From a virus (lineage: Duplodnaviria > Heunggongvirae > Uroviricota > Caudoviricetes): DNA of 38,555 nucleotides. A program made the translations under genes and the position numbers. The notes under the pieces are model-generated. The model worked only from the letters and a program-made list of their open reading frames with translations, was not told where the DNA came from and made no database searches. The first letter of the stretch is position 1; every line of letters begins with the position of its first letter. The stretch lies in IMG/VR virus record IMGVR_UViG_2537562091_000004. One strand, given 5' to 3'. Below, in pieces: positions 1,962 through 38,320 of this stretch.

Positions 1962-3017
1962 GTGCGGGTATTACTTCGACCTGTTCTGGTACCGGAACTC
2001 GGGCTGGTGATCGTTAAGCCGGGCCGTGAATCCATGCCGGTATTCCACAATACCCGGGTACTGGTGGAGCCGGAACCGAAAAGCATGCGTAATCTGCCGT
2101 CCGGGGTCGTTCCTGCCGTTCGCCAGCCGCTGGCGGAGGATAAATCATTACTGCCATTTTTCAGCGACGAACGAGTGATTCGTGCTGCTGGTGGCGCTGG
2201 CGCATTGTCTGACTGGTTACTGCGCCATGTTAAATCCTGCCAGTGGCCACACGGCGATTATCACCACAGTGAAACCGTCATTCACCGTTATGGTACCGGC
2301 GCAATGGTGTTGTGCTGGCACTGCGACAACCAGCTGCGCGACCAGACCTCCGAATCACTCGGGCAACTTGCTCACCAAAACCTGTTTGCATGGATGATTG
2401 ACGTCATACGCCATGCAATGAATGGCTCGCAGGAACGGGAATTATCGCTGGCTGAATTATCCTGGTGGGCGGTCCGCAATCAGGTGGCGGACGCGCTACC
2501 GGAAGCGGTATTACGTCGTTCGCTGGGGTTGCGTGCGGAAAAAATCCGCTCAATGTACCGTGAAAGCGACATCGTACCGGGAGAGCAGACCGCCACCAGC
2601 ATACTGAAGCAGCGCACAAAAAATCTTGCGCCGCTGCCTCACGCCCACCAGCAAAACCCGCCACAGGAAAAGACGGTGGTCAGCATTGCCGTTGATCCGG
2701 AGTCACCGGCTCAGTATCTCCAGCGCCAGAAATCACAACGGGAAGAGATGCCTGTATACACGCGTTGGGTAAAAACGCAGAAATGCATGACGTGTGGCAA
2801 TCAGGCAGATGATCCGCATCACATCATTGGTCATGGACTGGGAGGGATGGGAACAAAGGCTGATGATTTGTTTGTTATTCCGCTGTGCCGTAAATGCCAT
2901 AGCGAACTACACGCCGGGGTAAAAGATTTTGAAGAAAAACACGGCAGCCAGCTGTTGTTGCTGATTCGTTTTTTAATGCACGCGAGAAATTCGGGTGTTT
3001 TGAAGTGGAAAGCATAA
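1962..3017 (+). CDS. YdfU-like (DUF968) prophage protein with C-terminal Cys/His zinc-ribbon or HNH-like motif
   Basis: 351 aa; GTG start after a GGAGG SD; C-terminus CMTCGNQADDPHHIIGHGLGG...CRKCHSELH; size and position match Qin ydfU. Confidence 0.55.
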   Translation: MRVLLRPVLVPELGLVIVKPGRESMPVFHNTRVLVEPEPKSMRNLPSGVVPAVRQPLAEDKSLLPFFSDERVIRAAGGAGALSDWLLRHVKSCQWPHGDYHHSETVIHRYGTGAMVLCWHCDNQLRDQTSESLGQLAHQNLFAWMIDVIRHAMNGSQERELSLAELSWWAVRNQVADALPEAVLRRSLGLRAEKIRSMYRESDIVPGEQTATSILKQRTKNLAPLPHAHQQNPPQEKTVVSIAVDPESPAQYLQRQKSQREEMPVYTRWVKTQKCMTCGNQADDPHHIIGHGLGGMGTKADDLFVIPLCRKCHSELHAGVKDFEEKHGSQLLLLIRFLMHARNSGVLKWKA

Positions 3018-3398
3018 ATGACTGAACGCATAGAATTTGTTTTGCCTTACCCGCCAACGGTGAACACTTACTGGCGTCGTCGTGGCAGCACATATTTTGT
3101 ATCAAAAGCCGGGGAGCGTTATCGCCGGGCAGTGGCGCTTATTGTTCGCCAGCAGCGGCTGAAATTAAGCCTGTCCGGAAGGTTGGCAATAAAAATTATT
3201 GCAGAACCACCGGATAAGCGCCGCCGTGACCTGGACAATATTCTGAAAGCGCCGCTGGATGCGCTGACGCATGCGGGGTTGCTAATGGACGATGAGCAGT
3301 TTGATGAAATCAATATCGTTCGTGCTCAGCCAGTATCTGGTGGACGTCTGGGGGTGAAGATTTACCCCATAATGCTTGAAGGGCAGGTCAAAAAATGA
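3018..3398 (+). CDS. rusA: RusA-family Holliday junction resolvase
   Basis: 126 aa; LPYPPTVNTYWRRRG...DKRRRDLDNILKAPLDALTHAGLLMDD matches RusA motifs including the catalytic RRRDLDN block. Confidence 0.85.
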   Translation: MTERIEFVLPYPPTVNTYWRRRGSTYFVSKAGERYRRAVALIVRQQRLKLSLSGRLAIKIIAEPPDKRRRDLDNILKAPLDALTHAGLLMDDEQFDEINIVRAQPVSGGRLGVKIYPIMLEGQVKK

Positions 3399-4216
3399 AA
3401 CTGGAAGATTTACCGAAATACTACTCCCCAAAATCCCCCGGCCTGACTGATGCATCGGCCTCAACGTCGAAAGATGCGCTGAGTATCACTGATGTGATGG
3501 CCGCGCAGGGCATGACACAGAATCGGGCTGAGATGGGGTTTTCTGCGTTCCTTGGGAAAATGGGCATTAGTATGAATGACAGAGAGCGGGCAACAGAATT
3601 GCTGACAGAATATGCACTCAGTCGGTGTGATCGCGTGGCGGCGTTAAGAAAACTCCCGGCAGAAATAAAACCGGTAGTGATGCGCATTATGGCTTCGTAC
3701 GCTTTTGAGGATTATGCCCGCAGCGCAGCGAGTAAAAAGCAGTGCCCTTGTTGCTATGGGGAAAAATTTATTGAAAGCGTAGTTTTTACAAACAAGGTCC
3801 AGTATCCGGATGGTAAGCCGCCGGTATGGGCAAAGTGTACGAAAGGTGTGTATCCGTCTTACTGGGAAGAATGGAAAAAAGTCAGGGAGGTGGTAAAAGT
3901 TGCCTGTCCGGAGTGTGGCGGAAAGGGTGAGGTTTCCACCGCCTGTAAGGATTGCCGTGGGCGTGGTGTCGCCATTCATCGTGAAGAGTCGGTAAAACGT
4001 GGTATGCCTGTTATCAGAGACTGCCAGCGTTGTGGTGGTCGTGGCTGTGAAAGACTACCATCAACGGAGGCATTTAATGCCATATGCAAAGTGACGAGTG
4101 CTATCACGCTTGATACGTGGAAAAAATCAGTGAAACGCTTTTACGATACGTTGGTGGTTCGGTTTGACATTGAAGAGGCATGGGCGGAGCGGCAGTTAAA
4201 GAGGGTAACGCGATAG
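3395..4216 (+). CDS. Late-gene antiterminator Q (Qin/82-type, zinc-finger containing)
   Basis: 273 aa with CPECGGKG...CKDCRGRG...CQRCGGRG Cys clusters; ATGA overlap with rusA; immediately upstream of a promoter plus short-transcript terminator, as for Q/pR'/tR'. Confidence 0.65.
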   Translation: MKLEDLPKYYSPKSPGLTDASASTSKDALSITDVMAAQGMTQNRAEMGFSAFLGKMGISMNDRERATELLTEYALSRCDRVAALRKLPAEIKPVVMRIMASYAFEDYARSAASKKQCPCCYGEKFIESVVFTNKVQYPDGKPPVWAKCTKGVYPSYWEEWKKVREVVKVACPECGGKGEVSTACKDCRGRGVAIHREESVKRGMPVIRDCQRCGGRGCERLPSTEAFNAICKVTSAITLDTWKKSVKRFYDTLVVRFDIEEAWAERQLKRVTR

Positions 4217-5889: not shown

Positions 5890-5965
5890 GGCCCTTTAGC
5901 TCAGTGGTGAGAGCGAGCGACTCATAATCGCCAGGTCGCTGGTTCAAATCCAGCAAGGGCCACCA
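5890..5965 (+). tRNA. ileZ: tRNA with CAU anticodon (tRNA-Ile2/Met type, like phage ileZ), CCA encoded
   Basis: Cloverleaf folded by hand: acceptor ggccctt/aagggcc, D-arm gctc/gagc, anticodon loop ctCATaa, T-arm ggttcaaatcc. Confidence 0.85.
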
Positions 5966-5972
5966 TCACATA

Positions 5973-6049
5973 CCGCCATTAGCTCATCAGGAAAGAGCGC
6001 CAGCCTTCGAAGCTGGTTGCGCGGAGTTCGGGTCCCCGAAGGCGGTCCA
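5973..6049 (+). tRNA. tRNA-Arg(UCG)-like; imperfect acceptor and T stems, possibly degenerate
   Basis: Anticodon stem ccagc/gctgg with loop ctTCGaa; T-loop ttcgggt; one mismatch each in the acceptor and T stems when folded by hand. Confidence 0.5.
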
Positions 6050-6062
6050 TTATCTGTATCCT

Positions 6063-6139
6063 GCGTTGTTAGCTCAGCCGGACAGAGCAATTGCCTTCTA
6101 AGCAATCGGTCACTGGTTCGAATCCAGTACAACGCGCCA
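6063..6139 (+). tRNA. tRNA-Arg (UCU anticodon), CCA encoded
   Basis: Acceptor gcgttgt/acaacgc, D-arm gctc/gagc, anticodon stem attgc/gcaat with loop ctTCTaa, T-arm actgg-ttcgaat-ccagt. Confidence 0.85.
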
Positions 6140-6184: not shown

Positions 6185-6397
6185 CTCACAATTCAGGCGG
6201 TTGACTGTTGTCTGGTTTGCGGGGAGTTTGTTAAAAGAAACTGGCATGGTGAATCCCCCTGTGCGGAGGGGCAATCAGCGAGTAGGTATATGGGATAATC
6301 GCGGATTCAGGTGCTGGTACTGAATTCACCGGGAGGCACCCGGCACCATGCAATGGCACATAGCGCCACTCTCCAGCCCCTCTCCGGAGGGGCTTTT
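6185..6397 (+). repeat. Copy 1 of a diverged tandem structured element of about 215-230 bp (candidate sRNA unit) ending in an intrinsic terminator
   Basis: Shares with copy 2: ctcacaattcag, TTGAC box, gcatggtgaatccccctg.gcggaggggc, caccgggaggcacccggcaccatg, and terminator gcccctc-tccg-gaggggc + tttt (6376-6397). Confidence 0.5.
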
Positions 6398-6588
6398 CTG
6401 TGCCGGATACATCACAGTTTCTGGAACCTTAGGTACTACAGTATCAGTCAGGGTGCTATATTTTCAGATGTGATGAAAGCCTGTCAGCAGGCAGGGCGTA
6501 TCGGAAATGACCCAGTAGAGAAAACGTTGACTCAGATACCGGTGCTGAGTTACCGGGAAACCGGCATCACATGACCGCTATCCTTCCA

Positions 6589-6652: not shown

Positions 6653-6883
6653 CTCACAATTCAGTAAGTTGACAGTTGCCTGTCAGACTGGGCATTTGTT
6701 AAAAAAATTTCGCATGGTGAATCCCCCTGAGCGGAGGGGCGACTGGTGACGGTATAATCTCTGATTATCAAAACGAGAATGACGCGGGTTTAGTGGCACC
6801 GGGCTGAACTCACCGGGAGGCACCCGGCACCATGTGCATGATGATACAGATACGCGGCTTTAGCCCCTCTCCGGAGGGGCTTT
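6653..6883 (+). repeat. Copy 2 of the tandem structured element (candidate sRNA unit) with an internal TATAAT box and terminal terminator
   Basis: Same conserved blocks as copy 1; perfect TATAAT inside the unit; terminator gcccctc-tccg-gaggggc + ttt at 6863-6883. Confidence 0.5.
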
Positions 6884-6892
6884 CTTATGGAC

Positions 6893-16103: not shown

Positions 16104-17692
16104 AACGAACGCCTGTCCTGATTGATGTGAACGGCGTTCCGCTTCGTGAGAGTCTCAGCTACAACGGGGGCGGCGCAGGATTTGGCGGGCAAATGGCGGA
16201 GTGGTTGCCACCGGCGCAGAGTGCCGATGCAGCCCTGCTGCCTGCGTTGCGTCTGGGGAATGCCCGGGCAGATGATCTGGTGCGCAATAACGGGATAGCG
16301 GCTAATGCGGTGGCCCTGCATAAGGATCATATTGTCGGGCATATGTTTCTGATCAGCTACCGTCCGAACTGGCGCTGGCTGGGGATGCGGGAGACTGCGG
16401 CATAAAGTTTTGTCGATGAGGTGGAGGCGGCCTGGTCGGAATACGCCGAAGGGATGTTTGGCGAGATCGACGTGGAAGGGAAACGCACGTTTACGGAATT
16501 TATCCGTGAAGGTGTGGGCGTTCATGCGTTTAACGGCGAAATCTTTGTGCAGCCGGTCTGGGATACGGAGAGCACGCAACTGTTTCGTACGCGTTTTAAA
16601 GCCGTGAGTCCGAAACGGGTGGACACGCCAGGACACGGTATCGGGAACCGTTTTCTGCGGGCCGGTGTGGAGGTCGATCGATATGGCCGTGCCGTTGCGT
16701 ACCATATCTGTGAGGATGATTTTCCGTTCTCTGGGAGTGGACGATGGGAACGGATCCCGCGTGAACTTCCCACCGGGCGTCCGGCCATGCTGCATATTTT
16801 CGAGCCGGTGGAGGACGGGCAGACCCGTGGGGCCAATCAGTTTTACAGCGTAATGGAACGGCTGAAGATGCTCGATTCCCTGCAGGCAACACAGCTTCAG
16901 TCGGCCATAGTGAAGGCGATGTATGCAGCGACGATTGAAAGTGACCTTGATACCGAAAAGGCCTTTGAATATATCGCCGGTGCGCCGCAGGGGCAGAAGG
17001 ATAATCCGCTTATTAATATTCTGGATAAGTTCTCCACCTGGTATGACACGAATAGCGTGACGCTGGGCGGTGTCAAAATTCCGCACCTTTTCCCCGGTGA
17101 TGATCTGAAACTTCAGACCGCGCAGGATTCAGACAATGGATTTTCGGCGCTTGAACAGGCGCTGCTGCGGTATATCGCCGCCGGTCTTGGCGTTTCCTAC
17201 GAACAGTTGTCCCGTGATTACTCGAAGGTCAGTTATTCAAGTGCCCGCGCATCCGCCAATGAGTCGTGGCGCTATTTTATGGGGCGGCGAAAATTTATTG
17301 CGTCCCGGCTGGCCACGCAGATGTTTTCCTGCTGGCTGGAAGAGGCACTTCTTCGGGGGATTATTCGTCCGCCACGGGCACGTTTTGATTTTTATCAGGC
17401 GCGATCAGCCTGGTCACGGGCTGAGTGGATTGGAGCCGGAAGAATGGCCATTGACGGGCTCAAGGAGGTTCAGGAATCAGTGATGCGCATTGAGGCCGGA
17501 CTGAGCACGTATGAGAAAGAGCTGGCGCTGATGGGCGAGGATTATCAGGACATTTTCCGCCAGCAGGTCAGGGAATCTGCAGAGCGGGAAAAAGCCGGAC
17601 TCTCACGTCCGGTGTGGATAGCGCAGGCGTATCAGCAGCAGATAGCGGAGAGTCGCAGGCCGGAAGAGGAGACAACACCACGTGAGACGTAA
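16100..17692 (+). pseudogene. B: Portal protein gpB interrupted by an in-frame TAA (16403-16405)
   Basis: ORFs 16100..16405 and 16421..17692 are in the same frame, and lambda-B-like sequence runs straight through the stop (…RETAA*SFVDEVEAAWSEYAEG…). Confidence 0.75.
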
Positions 17693-21452: not shown

Positions 21453-22028
21453 ATGGCGATAAAAGGGCTTGATCAGGCGATTGACAATCTGAGCCGGGTT
21501 CGTAAAAACGCCATTCCGGCTGCTTCTGCAATGACCATTAACCGCGTGGCCATAACGGCGATTAATCAGTCTTCGTCACAGGTTGCCCGGGAAACCAGGG
21601 TGAGACGGAAACTGGTAAAGGAACGGTCCAGACTGAAACGGGCGACGGTCAGAAATCCGAATGCCAGAATTATCGTTAACCGCGGTGATCTCCCTGTGAT
21701 TAAGCTGGGGATCAGAATGCTGGGGCGTCGTCCGGACAGCATACTCAAAGCCGGTCAGCATCGTTATCAGCGGGCATTTATCCAGCGATTAAATAATGGG
21801 CGCTGGCATGTTATGCAACGTCTTCCCCAGGCCAGATATGAGGAGGGCAATGACGACAAGGGAAGGAAAAAGCGTAATCGCCTTCCCATTCAGGTGGTGA
21901 AAATCCCGATGGCGGCCCCACTGAAACAGGCATTTGATGAGAATGTTGACCGTATCCGGCGTGAACGCCTGCCTAAAGAACTGGCATACGCGCTGAAACA
22001 ACAACTGAGGATTGCGATAAAACGATGA
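21453..22028 (+). CDS. Z: Minor tail protein gpZ
   Basis: 191 aa, MAIKGLDQAIDNLSR...QVARETRVRRKLVKERSRLKRATV resembles lambda Z. Confidence 0.85.
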   Translation: MAIKGLDQAIDNLSRVRKNAIPAASAMTINRVAITAINQSSSQVARETRVRRKLVKERSRLKRATVRNPNARIIVNRGDLPVIKLGIRMLGRRPDSILKAGQHRYQRAFIQRLNNGRWHVMQRLPQARYEEGNDDKGRKKRNRLPIQVVKIPMAAPLKQAFDENVDRIRRERLPKELAYALKQQLRIAIKR

Positions 22029-27653: not shown

Positions 27654-28397
27654 ATGACACAGACTGAATCAGCGATTCTGGCGCATGCCCGGCGGTGTGC
27701 GCCTGCGGAGTCGTGCGGCTTCGTGATAAGCACGCCGGAGGGGGAGTGGTATATCCCTTGTGTGAATATTTCTGCAGAGCCGGAGGCGTATTTTCGTATC
27801 GCACCGGAAGACTGGCTGCGGGCAGAGATGCAGGGGGAGATTGTGGCACTGGTCCACAGTCATCCCGGTGGGCTGCCCTGGCTGAGCGAGGCTGACCGGC
27901 GGCTGCAGATAAAAAGCGCACTGCCCTGGTGGCTGGTCTGCCGGGGTGACATTCACAAATTCCGCTGTGTGCCACATCTGACAGGACGGCGCTTTGAGCA
28001 CGGGGTGACGGACTGTTACACGCTGTTCCGGGATGCTTATCATCTGGCGGGGACTGAAATGCCGGATTTTCATCGCGAGGATGACTGGTGGCGCAACGGC
28101 CAGAACCTTTACCTGGACAATATGGCGGTCACCGGCTTTTACCGGGTGCCCCTGTCCTCTGCACAGGCGGGCGATATTCTGCTGTGCTGCTTTGGTGCTT
28201 CGGTACCGAACCATGCCGCCATTTACTGCGGCAACGGTGAGCTGCTTCACCATCTGCCTGAACAACTGAGTAAACGGGAGAGGTATTCCGAAAAATGGCA
28301 ACGACGAACGCATTCTGTCTGGCGTCACCGCCACTGGCACGCATCTGCCTTCACGGGGATTTACAACGATTTGGCCGCCGCCTCAGCCTGTATGTGA
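27654..28397 (+). CDS. K: Tail tip assembly protein gpK (MPN/JAB plus NlpC/P60-like domains)
   Basis: About 247 aa from the ATG at 27654 (MTQTESAILAHARRCAPAESCGFV...HSHPGG); the upstream part of the track ORF overlaps L. Confidence 0.85.
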   Translation: MTQTESAILAHARRCAPAESCGFVISTPEGEWYIPCVNISAEPEAYFRIAPEDWLRAEMQGEIVALVHSHPGGLPWLSEADRRLQIKSALPWWLVCRGDIHKFRCVPHLTGRRFEHGVTDCYTLFRDAYHLAGTEMPDFHREDDWWRNGQNLYLDNMAVTGFYRVPLSSAQAGDILLCCFGASVPNHAAIYCGNGELLHHLPEQLSKRERYSEKWQRRTHSVWRHRHWHASAFTGIYNDLAAASACM

Positions 28398-28975
28398 ACA
28401 CGGCAGCGGAAGCCATCCGGGCGCTGTCGTTACAGGTGCCGGGCTTTCGCCGTCAGATGAACGAAGGCTGGTACCAGATACGTATTGCCGGTTATGACAC
28501 GGCACCGGAGGCGGTGTACGCCCGTCTTCACGAACAGCTGGGTGAGGGAACGGTCATCCATATTGTGCCGCGACTGGCCGGGGCCGGAAAGGGTGGACTG
28601 CAGATTGTGCTGGGGGCGGCAGCCATCGTGGGCTCTTTCTTCACTGCCGGTGCCTCGATGGCGTTATGGGGTACAGCCCTGAGTGCCGGCGGTTTTTCTG
28701 CCACCACGATGCTGTTTTCACTGGGGGCCAGCATGATACTGGGCGGTGTGGCCCAGATGCTGGCCCCGAAGGCAAAAACACCGGAGTACAAAAGCACGGA
28801 TAACGGTAAACAGAACACGTACTTTTCCTCCCTGGATAACATGATTGCCCAGGGTAACCCGATGCCGGTGCCTTACGGGGAAATGCTGGTTGGCTCCCGC
28901 CGTATATCCCAGGACATCAGTACCCGTGATGAAGGCGGGGGCGGAAAGGTCGTGGTTATCGGGCGGCAGGGGTAA
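28295..28975 (+). CDS. I: Tail assembly protein gpI
   Basis: 226 aa, ARICLHGDLQRFGRR...GKQNTYFSSLDNMIAQGNPMPVPYGEM resembles lambda I. Confidence 0.85.
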   Translation: MATTNAFCLASPPLARICLHGDLQRFGRRLSLYVNTAAEAIRALSLQVPGFRRQMNEGWYQIRIAGYDTAPEAVYARLHEQLGEGTVIHIVPRLAGAGKGGLQIVLGAAAIVGSFFTAGASMALWGTALSAGGFSATTMLFSLGASMILGGVAQMLAPKAKTPEYKSTDNGKQNTYFSSLDNMIAQGNPMPVPYGEMLVGSRRISQDISTRDEGGGGKVVVIGRQG

Positions 28976-33610: not shown

Positions 33611-36600
33611 ATGACAGTAAAAATTTCTGGCGTGCTTAAAGATGGCACAGGAAAACCAGTACAGAACTGCACCATTGTGCTGAAGGCCAGACGAACCAGC
33701 AGCACGGTGGTGGTGAACACGGTGGCCTCTGAAAATCCGGATGAAGCCGGACGTTACAGCATGGATGTTGAGCATGGTCAGTACAGCGTCACCCTGCTGG
33801 TTGAAGGTTTTCCGCCTTCACATGCCGGGACCATTACCGTCTATGAAGGTTCCAGACCAGGTACGCTGAATGATTTTCTCGGTGCCATGACGGAGGATGA
33901 TGTCCGACCGGAGGCACTGCGCCGCTTTGAGCAGATGGTGGAAGAGGTGTCACGTAACGCCTCCGCGGTTGCACAGAATACGGCAGCCGCGAAAAAATCA
34001 GCCAGCGATGCCAGTGCATCAGCCAGCGAGGCGGCAACTCATGCAACCGATGCTGCAGCCTCAGCACGTGCCGCCAGCACGTCAGCCGGACAGGCCGCGT
34101 CGTCGGCTCAGTCAGCGTCTTCCAGCGCAGGAACGGCATCGACAAAGGCCCGTGAAGCAGCAAAAAGTGCTGCTGCTGCAGAGTCATCAAAAAGCGCGGC
34201 AGCTACCAGCGCCAGTGCCGCGAAAACGTCAGAAACGAATGCCGCAGCATCACAAAAATCGGCAGCCACTTCTGCATCCACAGCGACCACGAAGGCGTCA
34301 GAAGCTGCCACCTCGGCACGGGGTGCGGCGGCCTCAAAAGAGGCAGCGAAATCTTCAGAAACGAATGCATCATCAAGTGCCAGTAGTGCAGCTTCCTCGG
34401 CAACGGCGGCAGGAAATTCCGCGAAGGCGGCAAAAACGTCCGAGACGAACGCTAAGTCTTCTGAAACAGCAGCGGGACAGAGCGCCTCAGCTGCGGCAGG
34501 TTCAAAAACAGCGGCTGCATTATCTGCCAGTGCCGCGTCAACAAGTGCCGGGCAGGCCTCAGCCAGTGCCACCGCCGCCGGAAAATCGGCAGAAAGCGCC
34601 GCATCATCCGCTTCAACAGCCACAACGAAGGCTGGCAAAGCCACTGAGCAAGCCACTGCAGCAGCGAGGTCTGCTTCTGCAGCAAAAACCTCTGAAACAA
34701 ATGCAAAGACTTCAGCAGACAATGCTGCTTCCTCTAAGGCGGCAGCCGCATCGTCAGCCAGTTCAGCGGCGTCATCGGCATCATCTGCGTCTGCTTCAAA
34801 AGATGAGGCGACCAGACAAGCGTCAGCAGCGAAAGGTAGTGCCACGACAGCAACAACGAAAGCATCAGAGGCGGCAGGCAGTGCGACGGCTGCATCTCAG
34901 AGCAAAGTTGCTGCTGAATCCGCGGCAACGCGCGCCGAGACAGCAGCAAAACGGGCAGAGGATATTGCATCCGCCGTGGCGCTGGAGGATGCGAGCACGA
35001 CGAAAAAGGGGATAGTACAGCTCAGCAGTGCAACAAACAGCACCAGTGAAAAGCTGGCGGCAACGCCAAAGGCAGTTAAAACTGTTAAAGATAGTTCAGT
35101 TCAAAAAACTGGCGACACAATGGGAGGGCAGTTAAAAATCAGCACGATAAATGCTCTTCGAATATTCAACCAAGCCTTTGGCCTTATTTTTAGGCGTTCC
35201 GAAGATCATCTTCATCTTATTCCGACTAATGAAGGGGAGGGGGAAAATGGAGACATCGGTTCATTAAGACCATTCTCTATAAACTTAAGATCAGGGTTGG
35301 TGTCCATCGGTAATGGACTAAAAGTTGGTGGTAGTGTTACTGGTAATTTGACCGGAAACGCAGATACTGCGACCAAGATCAAGACAGCACGTAAGATTGG
35401 GGGCGTGGCATTTGATGGATCGGCAGATATCAACTTGCCTGGAGTCAACGCTACCGGTAATCAAAACACTACAGGTAATGCTGCGACCGCCACGAAACTT
35501 CAGGCAGCCAGAACGATTAACGGTGTGTCATTTGATGGTAGTGCAAATATCACATTGACCCCTTCAAATATTGGGGCATTGGCATTAACTGGAGGGACTC
35601 TTTCAGGTGGTTTAACTGCTGCTGGTGAGGTTATTTCAAGGTCAGCAAATGGTCTGCGTATTGCCTATGGCAACTATGGATTCTTTATCCGAAATGATGG
35701 ATCAAACACATATTTTATGTTGACAGATTCGGGTAACAGTCTTGGTACGCACAATAGCTTAAGGCCGTTTATAATTAGTAACCATACTGGCAATGTTACA
35801 ATTGCAACTAAATTAAACGCGAGTGGTGGTATCACTGGATCTTTATCGGGTAATGCAAGCACAGCAACCAAATTGCAAACTGCAAGGACAATTAACGGCG
35901 TAAAATTTGACGGCTCGGCAAATATTGAAGCGTTTCCGCCAGGTGTTCCGCTGCCGTGGCCATCAGATACACCACCTGCAGGTTATGCAATCATGCAGGG
36001 GCAGACGTTTGATAAGGCAGCATATCCGAAACTGGCTATTGCCTATCCTTCAGGTGTTATTCCAGATATGCGCGGCTGGACAATCAAGGGCAAACCCGCC
36101 AGTGGCCGGGCCGTATTGTCTCAGGAACAGGACGGCATTAAATCGCACACCCACAGCGCCAGCGCATCCAGTACGGATTTGGGGACGAAAACCACATCGT
36201 CGTTTGATTACGGCACTAAATCCACGAATAACACCGGGGCGCATACGCACAGTCTGAGTGGCTCTACGGGGTCTGCCGGCGTTCATACTCATGGTAATGG
36301 TATTCGTTGGCCAGGAGGCGGCGGTTCTGCGTTAGCATTTTATGATGGCGGTGGGTTCACTTATGTCCAGAATTCACAGTATCAAGTAAGCCCGGAGACT
36401 TCTTCCTATAGATCGTATTATCAACGTATTCAGACACAGTCAGCAGGTGCTCATACCCACTCGCTGTCTGGTACTGCAGCAAGTTCTGGCGCACATGCAC
36501 ATACTGTAGGTATTGGTGCGCATACGCACTCCGTTGCGATTGGTTCACATGGACACACCATCACCGTTAACGCTGCGGGTAACGCGGAAAACACCGTCAA

Positions 36601-36637
36601 AAACATCGCATTTAACTATATTGTGAGGCTTGCATAA
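33611..36637 (+). CDS. stf: Side tail fibre protein (StfR/Stf-like) with long Ala/Ser-rich repeat region and His-rich C-terminal domain
   Basis: 1008 aa; N-terminus [22 protein letters not shown]..., A/S-rich repeats in the middle, C-terminal GAHTHSLSG...[31 protein letters not shown]. Confidence 0.85.
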
Positions 36638-37221
36638 TGGCATTCAGAATGAGTGAACAAGCACGGACCATAAAAATTTATAATCTGCTGGCCGGAACTA
36701 ATGAATTTATTGGTGAAGGTGACGCATATATTCCGCCTCATACAGGTCTGCCAGCAAACAGTACCGATATTGCACCACCAGATATTCCTGCTGGCTTTGT
36801 GGCTGTTTTCAACAGTGATGAGGCATCGTGGCATCTCGTTGAAGACCATCGGGGTAAAACGGTTTATGACGTAGCGTCAGGGGACGAGTTATTTATTTCT
36901 GAACTCGGTCCGTTACCGGAAAATGTTACCTGGTTATCGCCGGAAGGGGAGTTTTAGAAGTGGAACGGCACAGCCTGGGTGAAGGATACGGAAGCAGAAA
37001 AACTGTTCCGGATCCGGGAGGCGGAAGAAACAAAAAACAACCTGATGCAGGTAGCCAGTGAGCATATTGCGCCGCTTCAGGATGCTGCAGATCTGGAAAT
37101 TGCAACGGAGGAAGAAACCTCATTGCTGGAAGCCTGGAAAAAGTATCGGGTATTGCTGAACCGTGTTGATACATCAACTGCACCTGATATTGAGTGGCCT
37201 GTAAATCCTGTCAGGGAGTAA
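36637..37221 (+). pseudogene. tfa: Tail fibre assembly protein Tfa interrupted by an in-frame TAG (36955-36957)
   Basis: ORFs 36637..36957 and 36979..37221 are in the same frame; lambda-Tfa-like sequence is continuous across the stop (…[24 protein letters not shown]…). Confidence 0.75.
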
Positions 37222-37270
37222 TCATTGGGATTATGCCGCAGCACGTCTTAAGCAAGAACGTGCTGCGGTT
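37056..37270 (+). repeat. Direct repeat copy 1 (tfa 3' end plus downstream hairpin ccgcagcacgt...acgtgctgcgg)
   Basis: About 215 bp region repeated at 38106-38320 with high identity, including the imperfect palindrome after the stop codon. Confidence 0.7.
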
Positions 37271-37275
37271 GGATG

Positions 37276-37944
37276 CTATTTTTTCCCTGAAGCGGAAAAC
37301 ATTACTACAGTACCTTGAACCTTGGTTTTAACATTCTCGAAATGCTCTGAGAGTATATGTGTTAAGCCTTCTTCGGAATCTTTTGTGTTTGAAAAGATGC
37401 CTTTCTGATTGTAAATGCGCATCAGTTTTTGACCGAAGCTATTGTGCACAACTCCATCGCCAAGAATTGTGGCTCCGTATAGAGTTCCATCGTCAGTTAA
37501 GGCCTGCGCCGCATTGCGTATTACACAGCTTTTTGTAGATATATTTCCAGGCAGGCAGTGAAGAAGGTAAAACATGGAAATGGAATCAAATTGACCATGT
37601 AACGCCGCGGGATAAGGTTCAAAAACATCATGGCTAATTTTATGTTTAATTTTTGATTCCCCAGCCCTTGTAGATGCCGCGTTCAGGCTAGCTTCGTTCA
37701 AATCCATTAAAGATATCAGACTACTCTCAGGTACGTGAGTAAGGTAAAACCCAGTTCCAACACCAATATCCAGATGGTTGTTACCTACATGTTCCAGAAA
37801 GTGTGGAAGAAGGTGTTCCTTTGTAGGACATCCCCATGCAAGCCGATTTGATACTCCCAAAACCCACCAGTCATAAAGCTTTAGGGTAAGTGGTGTATAA
37901 ATTTTAGCCCCATCATCTGTGTTTTTTTTCATTGATTTCACCAT
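37276..37944 (-). CDS. Class I SAM-dependent methyltransferase (AT-rich cargo gene on the opposite strand)
   Basis: 222 aa; SAM-binding motif I LDIGVGTGFY; lower GC than neighbours; substrate cannot be assigned from sequence. Confidence 0.7.
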   Translation of the reverse strand: MVKSMKKNTDDGAKIYTPLTLKLYDWWVLGVSNRLAWGCPTKEHLLPHFLEHVGNNHLDIGVGTGFYLTHVPESSLISLMDLNEASLNAASTRAGESKIKHKISHDVFEPYPAALHGQFDSISMFYLLHCLPGNISTKSCVIRNAAQALTDDGTLYGATILGDGVVHNSFGQKLMRIYNQKGIFSNTKDSEEGLTHILSEHFENVKTKVQGTVVMFSASGKK

Positions 37945-38000: not shown

Positions 38001-38270
38001 ATGCTGCCGCAGCATAGCGATATTGAAATAGCCTGGTATGCTTCGATACAGCAGGAGCCGAATGGCTGGAAGATCGTCACCACACAGTTCTACATCCAGG
38101 AATTCAGTGAGTATATTGCGCCACTGCAGGATGCTGTAGATCTGGAAATCGCAACGGAGGAAGAAAGATCGTTGCTGGAGGCATGGAATAAATATCGGGT
38201 ATTGTTGAATCGTGTTGATACATCAACTGCACCTGATATTGAGTGGCCTGCAAATCCTGTCAGGGAGTAA
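38001..38270 (+). CDS. Truncated alternative tail-fibre-assembly (Tfa) C-terminal domain ORF
   Basis: 89 aa; last ~50 aa ([52 protein letters not shown]) duplicate the tfa C-terminus; N-terminus is unrelated. Confidence 0.45.
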
Positions 38271-38320
38271 TCATTGGGATTATGCCGCAGACACGTCGTA
38301 TGCAGGAACGTGCTGCGGTT
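38106..38320 (+). repeat. Direct repeat copy 2 (tfa 3' end plus hairpin)
   Basis: Matches 37056-37270; the hairpin arm carries one extra base relative to copy 1. Confidence 0.7.

Follow-up and report, generated by a model that had tools for sequence, protein, structure and literature searches.

The tfa locus

The window analysed here, the whole 38,555-nucleotide stretch of the virus record IMGVR_UViG_2537562091_000004, contains an intact side tail fibre gene, stf, followed directly by the tail fibre assembly gene, tfa. The sequence of the window and its translation show that an ATG at 36637 on the forward strand opens a run of 106 sense codons, which ends ...LSPEGEF at a TAG (36955-36957), and that the same frame then stays open to a TAA at 37219-37221, the two halves together making up a 194-codon lambda-type tfa. 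A preliminary description of this DNA had reported a tfa gene with an in-frame TAG and a continuing frame, and its coordinates, residues and frame all prove correct. The start of tfa and the stop of stf share bases (TAATG at 36635-36639), an arrangement that is found at position 21973 of lambda. The features of the locus are as follows.

33611-36637, + strand: stf, side tail fibre gene, intact; encodes 1008 aa, the client of the truncated chaperone
36637-36957, + strand: 5' part of tfa, closed by the premature TAG; 106 sense codons, covering the fibre-binding beta-domain except for its last two strands
36955-36957, + strand: amber TAG, followed by A; arose from CAG (Gln107) through a C-to-T transition at 36955
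36958-37221, + strand: 3' part of tfa, in frame and untranslated; codons 108-194 plus TAA, for the final beta-strands and, after them, the conserved hairpin of helices
36979-37221, + strand: in-frame ORF of 80 codons opening with GTG; the only conceivable reinitiation product, and a mechanical gene-finder call

Comparison with lambda identifies the gene. Lambda tfa (NC_001416 21973-22557) has 96% DNA identity to the window span, and lambda Tfa (orf-194, NP_040605.1) is 94% identical to the window protein when the stop is masked as X. Codon 107 in lambda is CAG, encoding the glutamine that the preliminary description had named for this junction. Both genes lie directly after stf, begin within its stop codon and span 194 codons, whereas the window has TAG at codon 107, a longer Stf of 1008 aa, and a methyltransferase gene on the reverse strand as the next gene where lambda has ea47. 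The 585-bp tfa span is matched by 52 phage records, in which it carries a single annotation, "tail fiber assembly protein", beside a side tail fibre gene. The stf span is identical in the closest prophage, that of E. coli strain 20AR0300 (L005), and its product is therefore WP_000216487.1.

The domain content of the two halves agrees with this assignment. With Gln restored at codon 107, the protein matches Pfam PF02413 (Caudo_TAP) over aa 72-191 with 150.7 bits (cut-off 22.1; E = 3e-44), so that the stop falls inside the domain, and the 106-aa fragment carries a precomputed PF28596 (Caudo_TAP_N) annotation; neither tfa fragment was matched by an NCBIfam model. Additionally, the C-terminal part of tfa (aa 127-191) aligns with Mu Tfa (PDB 5YVQ chain B) with E = 1e-8. 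This Mu protein, U or TfaMu, belongs to the same Caudo_TAP family, has the same C-terminal helical region and likewise binds the fibre with its N-terminal part and oligomerises through its C-terminal part. It differs in that its N-terminal domain has no detectable sequence similarity to that of the window protein and in being part of an invertible host-range segment.

A functional gene of this family would have an uninterrupted frame of about 190-210 codons, and the window gene departs from this with the TAG at codon 107. By every sequence criterion except its open reading frame the locus is a lambda-type tfa, and hence a tfa pseudogene; judged by the same comparisons, and far beyond what chance could produce, the two halves belong to one known gene that a single transition has split. 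The late operon ends with tfa, and what follows is encoded on the opposite strand, so that no polar effect of the stop is expected.

The 3' end of tfa is duplicated, at 37045-37270 and 38094-38320 (about 90% identity, 1049-bp spacing), and between the copies, at 37276-37944 on the reverse strand, lies the gene for a 222-aa class I SAM-dependent methyltransferase, an arrangement that suggests a moron brought in by recombination inside the 3' ends of tfa. In relatives the second copy is annotated as a tfa fragment that lacks the N-terminus.

Origin of the TAG codon

The closest tfa genes, which encode WP_000885578.1 and come from strains ST648, CFSAN061761 and 20AR0300, are set apart from the window copy by one base, 36955, which is T in the window and C in the relatives; this single difference was checked in two of the genomes and in the closest prophage. 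The genes lie in lambdoid prophages in ompW that share with the window the same prophage, integration site and neighbouring genes, the difference being that their tfa is intact. The closest prophage overall is that of strain 20AR0300, which is 99.8% identical to the window across 34.7 kb. In this strain and other relatives the element sits in ompW, beside yciE and the trp operon, and the late genes of 20AR0300, including tfa, the portal gene and the esterase gene, are annotated as intact.

Two further differences from 20AR0300 turned out to lie on the side of that strain. What appeared to be a 1.8-kb insertion at 1996-3802 of the window was rejected as such, since the segment is present in other relatives. 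It is 20AR0300 that has lost about 1.8 kb by deletion, with DUF968, RusA and the 5' portion of the gene for the antiterminator Q. Because Q is truncated in 20AR0300, this "intact" comparison prophage has a lesion of its own. A cluster of differences at 28109-28493 was likewise discarded as a feature of the window. It corresponds to a recombination patch in the 20AR0300 prophage (26810-27194 of L005), with about 40 substitutions in tail assembly genes, which is private to that strain; here the window agrees with the other relatives.

The C at 36955 is the ancestral base. It is present in lambda and in all three prophages used for polarising (L005, L016 and L017), and T is thus derived. The TAG allele is rare. 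At least 40 complete E. coli genomes hold a tfa that is 99.8% identical to the window copy, and when 5,426 complete E. coli genomes were searched with a 57-mer centred on the TAG, 6,261 places in 3,649 genomes were found, none of them an exact match. Metagenome contigs caught with a pattern that allows either C or T at the site read CAG in 120 of 120 cases, and 105 of the 107 full-length metagenome tfa copies read on, with 191-210 codons. Furthermore, homologues form a continuous chain down to about 60% identity (in Salmonella), with Gln, and once Lys, at position 107. Since the relatives read through this position, the natural end of Tfa is not here. The other two of the 107 are in the contigs L121 and L134: in L121 tfa stops at about codon 99, which looks like an independent truncation, and L134, unlike L121, is not an evident truncation, although the usual N-terminus is absent when it is read in register.

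We traced the window to the NCBI assembly GCA_000191015.1 by means of the truncated portal product; scaffold GL872249.1 of this assembly contains the window as an exact piece. Logan assemblies of three runs (SRR031805, SRR024151 and SRR035424), whose sequences occur exactly or almost exactly in the window, all have T at 36955. The base was judged at the level of these run assemblies. The three runs almost certainly come from the source strain, and GCA_000191015.1 was most likely built from their reads, which makes them a test of the base call and not independent isolates. An exact look-up of the 106-residue product led to 16 carrier contigs, and of the ten among them that were inspected, seven end inside tfa, five of them at the start of codon 107 with C or CA and two earlier, and three have the TAG. 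Proteins of "106 aa" elsewhere were accordingly rejected as a natural short gene, being contig-end truncations in seven of the ten contigs inspected and substrings of the window in the other three.

A sequencing or assembly error at 36955 in a gene that truly reads CAG is a rival explanation, and there are grounds for considering it, as GCA_000191015.1 is an old draft assembly, a TTT run directly precedes the site, and one run assembly has a 1-base indel elsewhere in stf, so that homopolymer-type errors do occur in these data. Against this, the change swaps one base and leaves the length as it was, unlike an indel, T is recovered in each of three separately assembled runs, and the same strain has two more lesions of other types. 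The threefold recovery and the preserved length leave an artefact highly improbable. Neither CAG in the reads nor a natural end of Tfa at this position, the two outcomes that the preliminary description had envisaged as counter-evidence, is therefore what these data contain.

Our explanation, which we regard as very likely when taken as a whole, is that the window tfa belongs to a lambdoid prophage inserted in ompW in the E. coli draft genome GCA_000191015.1, and that its TAG is a recent, strain-private nonsense mutation, CAG to TAG, seen so far in one E. coli strain.

Three lesions in the prophage

The tfa stop is not the only damage to this prophage. The preliminary description had listed a portal nonsense codon and an esterase frameshift and had counted the TAG as the third single-event lesion. 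Both of the others are real, and when polarised against L005, L016 and L017 all three lesions are derived and private to the lineage.

7845-7846, + strand: site of a 7-bp deletion in the gene for a SASA-family carbohydrate esterase; one of two tandem CCAGCAG copies is lost, causing a frameshift
16403-16405, + strand: portal nonsense codon TAA, K102 AAA to TAA; private to the lineage

The deletion splits the esterase gene into ORFs at 7115-8056 and 7801-8961; both tandem CCAGCAG copies are present in all three relatives, as in a classic slippage deletion. The portal nonsense codon, which is also present in GCA_000191015.1 and in the Logan assembly of SRR024151, splits its gene into ORFs of 101 and 423 aa. 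From the sequence, this is the lesion of the three that should prevent particles from being formed, and it gives the prophage what marks a defective one, a derived inactivating lesion in a particle-formation gene that is annotated as intact in relatives. A set of amber mutations of the kind carried by a laboratory phage was considered and set aside, as the portal gene has a TAA and the remaining lesion came about by a slippage deletion.

The lesions stand among a small number of private changes, ten at sites covered by all three relatives and two more at sites covered by two only. These comprise one intergenic change, three synonymous and five missense changes, two nonsense changes (portal K102 and tfa Q107) and the CCAGCAG deletion. 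The ratio of seven non-synonymous to three synonymous substitutions (n = 10) has a probability of P = 0.79 under neutrality and P = 0.015 under omega = 0.15. The private coding changes are thus consistent with relaxed selection or neutral decay, and the description of the prophage as decaying is supported at the level of its sequence. Two nonsense changes among ten coding substitutions are marginally above the neutral expectation (P = 0.046), which leaves small room for non-neutral explanations.

One such explanation is domestication in the strict sense, in which the lesions were selected because the host gains by disarming the prophage while keeping its cargo. This was the other half of the preliminary reading, which saw a "domesticated, decaying prophage" in the contrast between three lesions and an intact set of cargo genes. 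That three of about 12 private changes are inactivating, that nonsense changes are in slight excess, and that the cargo is indeed intact (lom, hokD/sok, two methyltransferases and a candidate defence cassette) could be read in this way. However, the cargo makes up only about 10.6% of the window, and the probability that three random lesions would all miss it is about 0.71, so that its intactness carries no signal of selection. Moreover, the esterase, the portal protein and Tfa control neither induction nor lysis, and their loss therefore does not save the cell; the sample is also very small and the test a post hoc one. We regard selection of the lesions as very unlikely. Decay is supported, and domestication, as it had been argued, is not. 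The early region, with int, cI and the replication genes, lies beyond the window.

The cassette counted here with the cargo lies at 11431-13060, between the lysis and terminase genes, and consists of two genes, one for a protein of the sce7726 family (NCBIfam NF033832, 184 bits) and a convergent one for a 355-aa "beta family" protein. Its PADLOC matches are cll, beta and PD-Lambda-2_C, and on these matches it is a candidate anti-phage defence moron. The cassette is present in 20AR0300 and WP4-S18-ESBL-09, and APEC E19035 has other genes in its place. Non-coding genes occupy 1195-1370, 5890-6139, 6215-6405 and 6683-6892, namely a sok antitoxin RNA beside hokD, three tRNA genes and two copies of the STnc100 prophage sRNA. 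One of the tRNAs, with anticodon CAT, is called Met by ARAGORN and tRNA-Ile in RefSeq relatives; the others are Arg-TCG and Arg-TCT.

Consequences for the chaperone

In the Tfa family, fibre binding falls to a variable N-terminal domain, and trimerisation and fibre assembly to a conserved, helical C-terminal one (PMC9608196). To place the stop in this architecture we used an AlphaFold2 model of a close homologue (P0063), not of the window protein itself, which has a mean pLDDT of 76 with low confidence in the N-terminal 30 residues and values of 86-96 in the C-terminal half. In full-length numbering, the model has beta-strands up to about aa 116, followed by helices at aa 118-152 and 158-176. 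Together with the 5YVQ chain B alignment it shows the two modules of the family, an N-terminal beta-domain and a C-terminal helical hairpin. Codon 107 lies within the second-last beta-strand of the model, and the stop thus takes away two strands and the entire helical hairpin.

Translation from 36637 would accordingly be expected to stop after 106 residues, and the product would keep most of the variable fibre-binding beta-domain but would be without its last two strands and without the C-terminal hairpin that drives fibre trimerisation and folding. From the homologue model and the published domain functions, we infer that a product of 106 residues has lost its function as a chaperone. If so, no side tail fibres would form from the 1008-aa Stf, although it is itself intact. 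In lambda, the side tail fibre needs both stf and tfa, and neither is essential for plaques (PMC10695390), so that the tfa lesion alone would not kill the phage.

Tfa might still work if the stop is overcome, either by suppression or read-through of the UAG with a host supE-like tRNA or a near-cognate tRNA-Gln, or by reinitiation at GTG 36979 with the two fragments acting jointly in trans. A UAG followed by A is comparatively suppressible. Insertion of Gln at the UAG would restore the exact wild-type protein, and a supE-type suppressor in the host genes glnV/glnX, which lie outside the window, would insert Gln. For reinitiation, the GTG is in frame 22 nt past the stop and opens an ORF that holds the whole helical hairpin, in a family that is modular (PMC9608196). 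Several observations weigh against both routes. None of the three tRNAs in the window has a CUA anticodon (they are CAT, TCG and TCT), which removes the prophage tRNA cluster as the source of a suppressor, and no motif resembling a Shine-Dalgarno sequence lies upstream of GTG 36979. The break is inside the beta-domain, two strands short of its end, and not at a linker. The stop is kept in no relative; conservation of the stop codon, as in a read-through gene, is not seen, TAG being absent from the 5,426 complete genomes and the 120 metagenome contigs. Finally, the portal gene of the same prophage is broken too, and hence nothing would maintain tfa function. We see only a very slight probability that the gene still works.

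The truncated protein might instead have acquired an activity. As a stable stub that binds the fibre and is incompetent for trimerisation, the N-terminal 106 residues could serve as a split chaperone in trans, alone or with the reinitiated 80-aa helical fragment, or could be dominant-negative. We consider this most improbable. Were a dominant-negative stub real, it would poison the assembly of side tail fibres in lambdoid phages that share the Stf tip, whether superinfecting or co-resident, and would amount to an accidental interference function encoded by a prophage.

The segment after the stop matches the small-RNA family IS009 (Rfam RF02111), with a covariance-model score of 224.5 bits against a gathering threshold of 117 at 36980-37178 and a second, weaker match of 112.8 bits, below threshold, at 38024-38227 on the downstream tfa remnant, and one could propose that this segment is kept as an RNA gene and not as coding sequence. 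The match, however, is the 3' half of tfa itself, the IS009 element having been described inside a gene and on the same strand (PMC5331693). Among 93 distinct alleles, the variable columns fall 37/14/13 at codon positions 3/1/2, the pattern of protein-level constraint, and a promoter-like site ahead of the segment is absent. Retention as an RNA gene is exceedingly improbable. From the sequence comparison, the RF02111 family appears to represent sequence that codes for the C-terminal part of Tfa, not a small RNA, and the IS009 match on the 3' half of tfa should not be taken as a small-RNA gene.

That Tfa is naturally made here from two genes, one for the N-terminal domain and a separately initiated one for the C-terminal domain, has next to no probability: separate Pfam models do exist for the two parts (PF28596 and PF02413), N-domain-only proteins are numerous in databases and gene finders call the second, downstream ORF, yet intact relatives are single ORFs of 191-210 codons, the PF02413 match in the window runs across the stop, and the N-domain-only proteins returned by the protein search were dismissed as natural short Tfa proteins, since they are partials at contig ends, copies frameshifted into the +1 frame or the result of an IS1A insertion.

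Truncated tfa alleles of other kinds are common in E. coli. Some are frameshifted genes whose products, 134-141 aa long, continue in the +1 frame, and in a cluster of 627 proteins (P0006) an IS1A element sits exactly after tfa codon 106, giving a 114-aa product that ends GDAANLLI. An example of this junction, from another E. coli lineage, is at 3290-3422 of L148 (GCA_001286425.1). The truncated alleles have the same N-terminal 106 residues as the window and then lose the C-terminal domain, and the mechanisms differ. That the IS1A junction falls at the same codon boundary as the TAG is probably coincidental, as neither an IS sequence nor an IS footprint is present at this place in the window.

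Loss of the side-tail-fibre module by a point lesion, with plaque formation kept, is known from the stf frameshift of lambda PaPa (PMC10695390), which differs from the window lesion in that it is a frameshift in the fibre gene, where the window has a nonsense codon in the chaperone gene that is private to one strain. In E. coli K-12, decaying tfa and stf remnants persist in the chromosome within the cryptic prophages Rac, Qin and e14 (PMC3945230). Pseudogenisation of tfa is commonplace in E. coli, and the lesion in the window is an ordinary event of an already known kind.

For annotation, the consequence is that the locus should be entered as a tfa pseudogene with an internal stop and not as two genes; otherwise the lesion matters little. 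Its wider use is as a worked example that intact cargo alone does not demonstrate domestication: the three lesions of this prophage are recent and private, and they are consistent with neutral decay.
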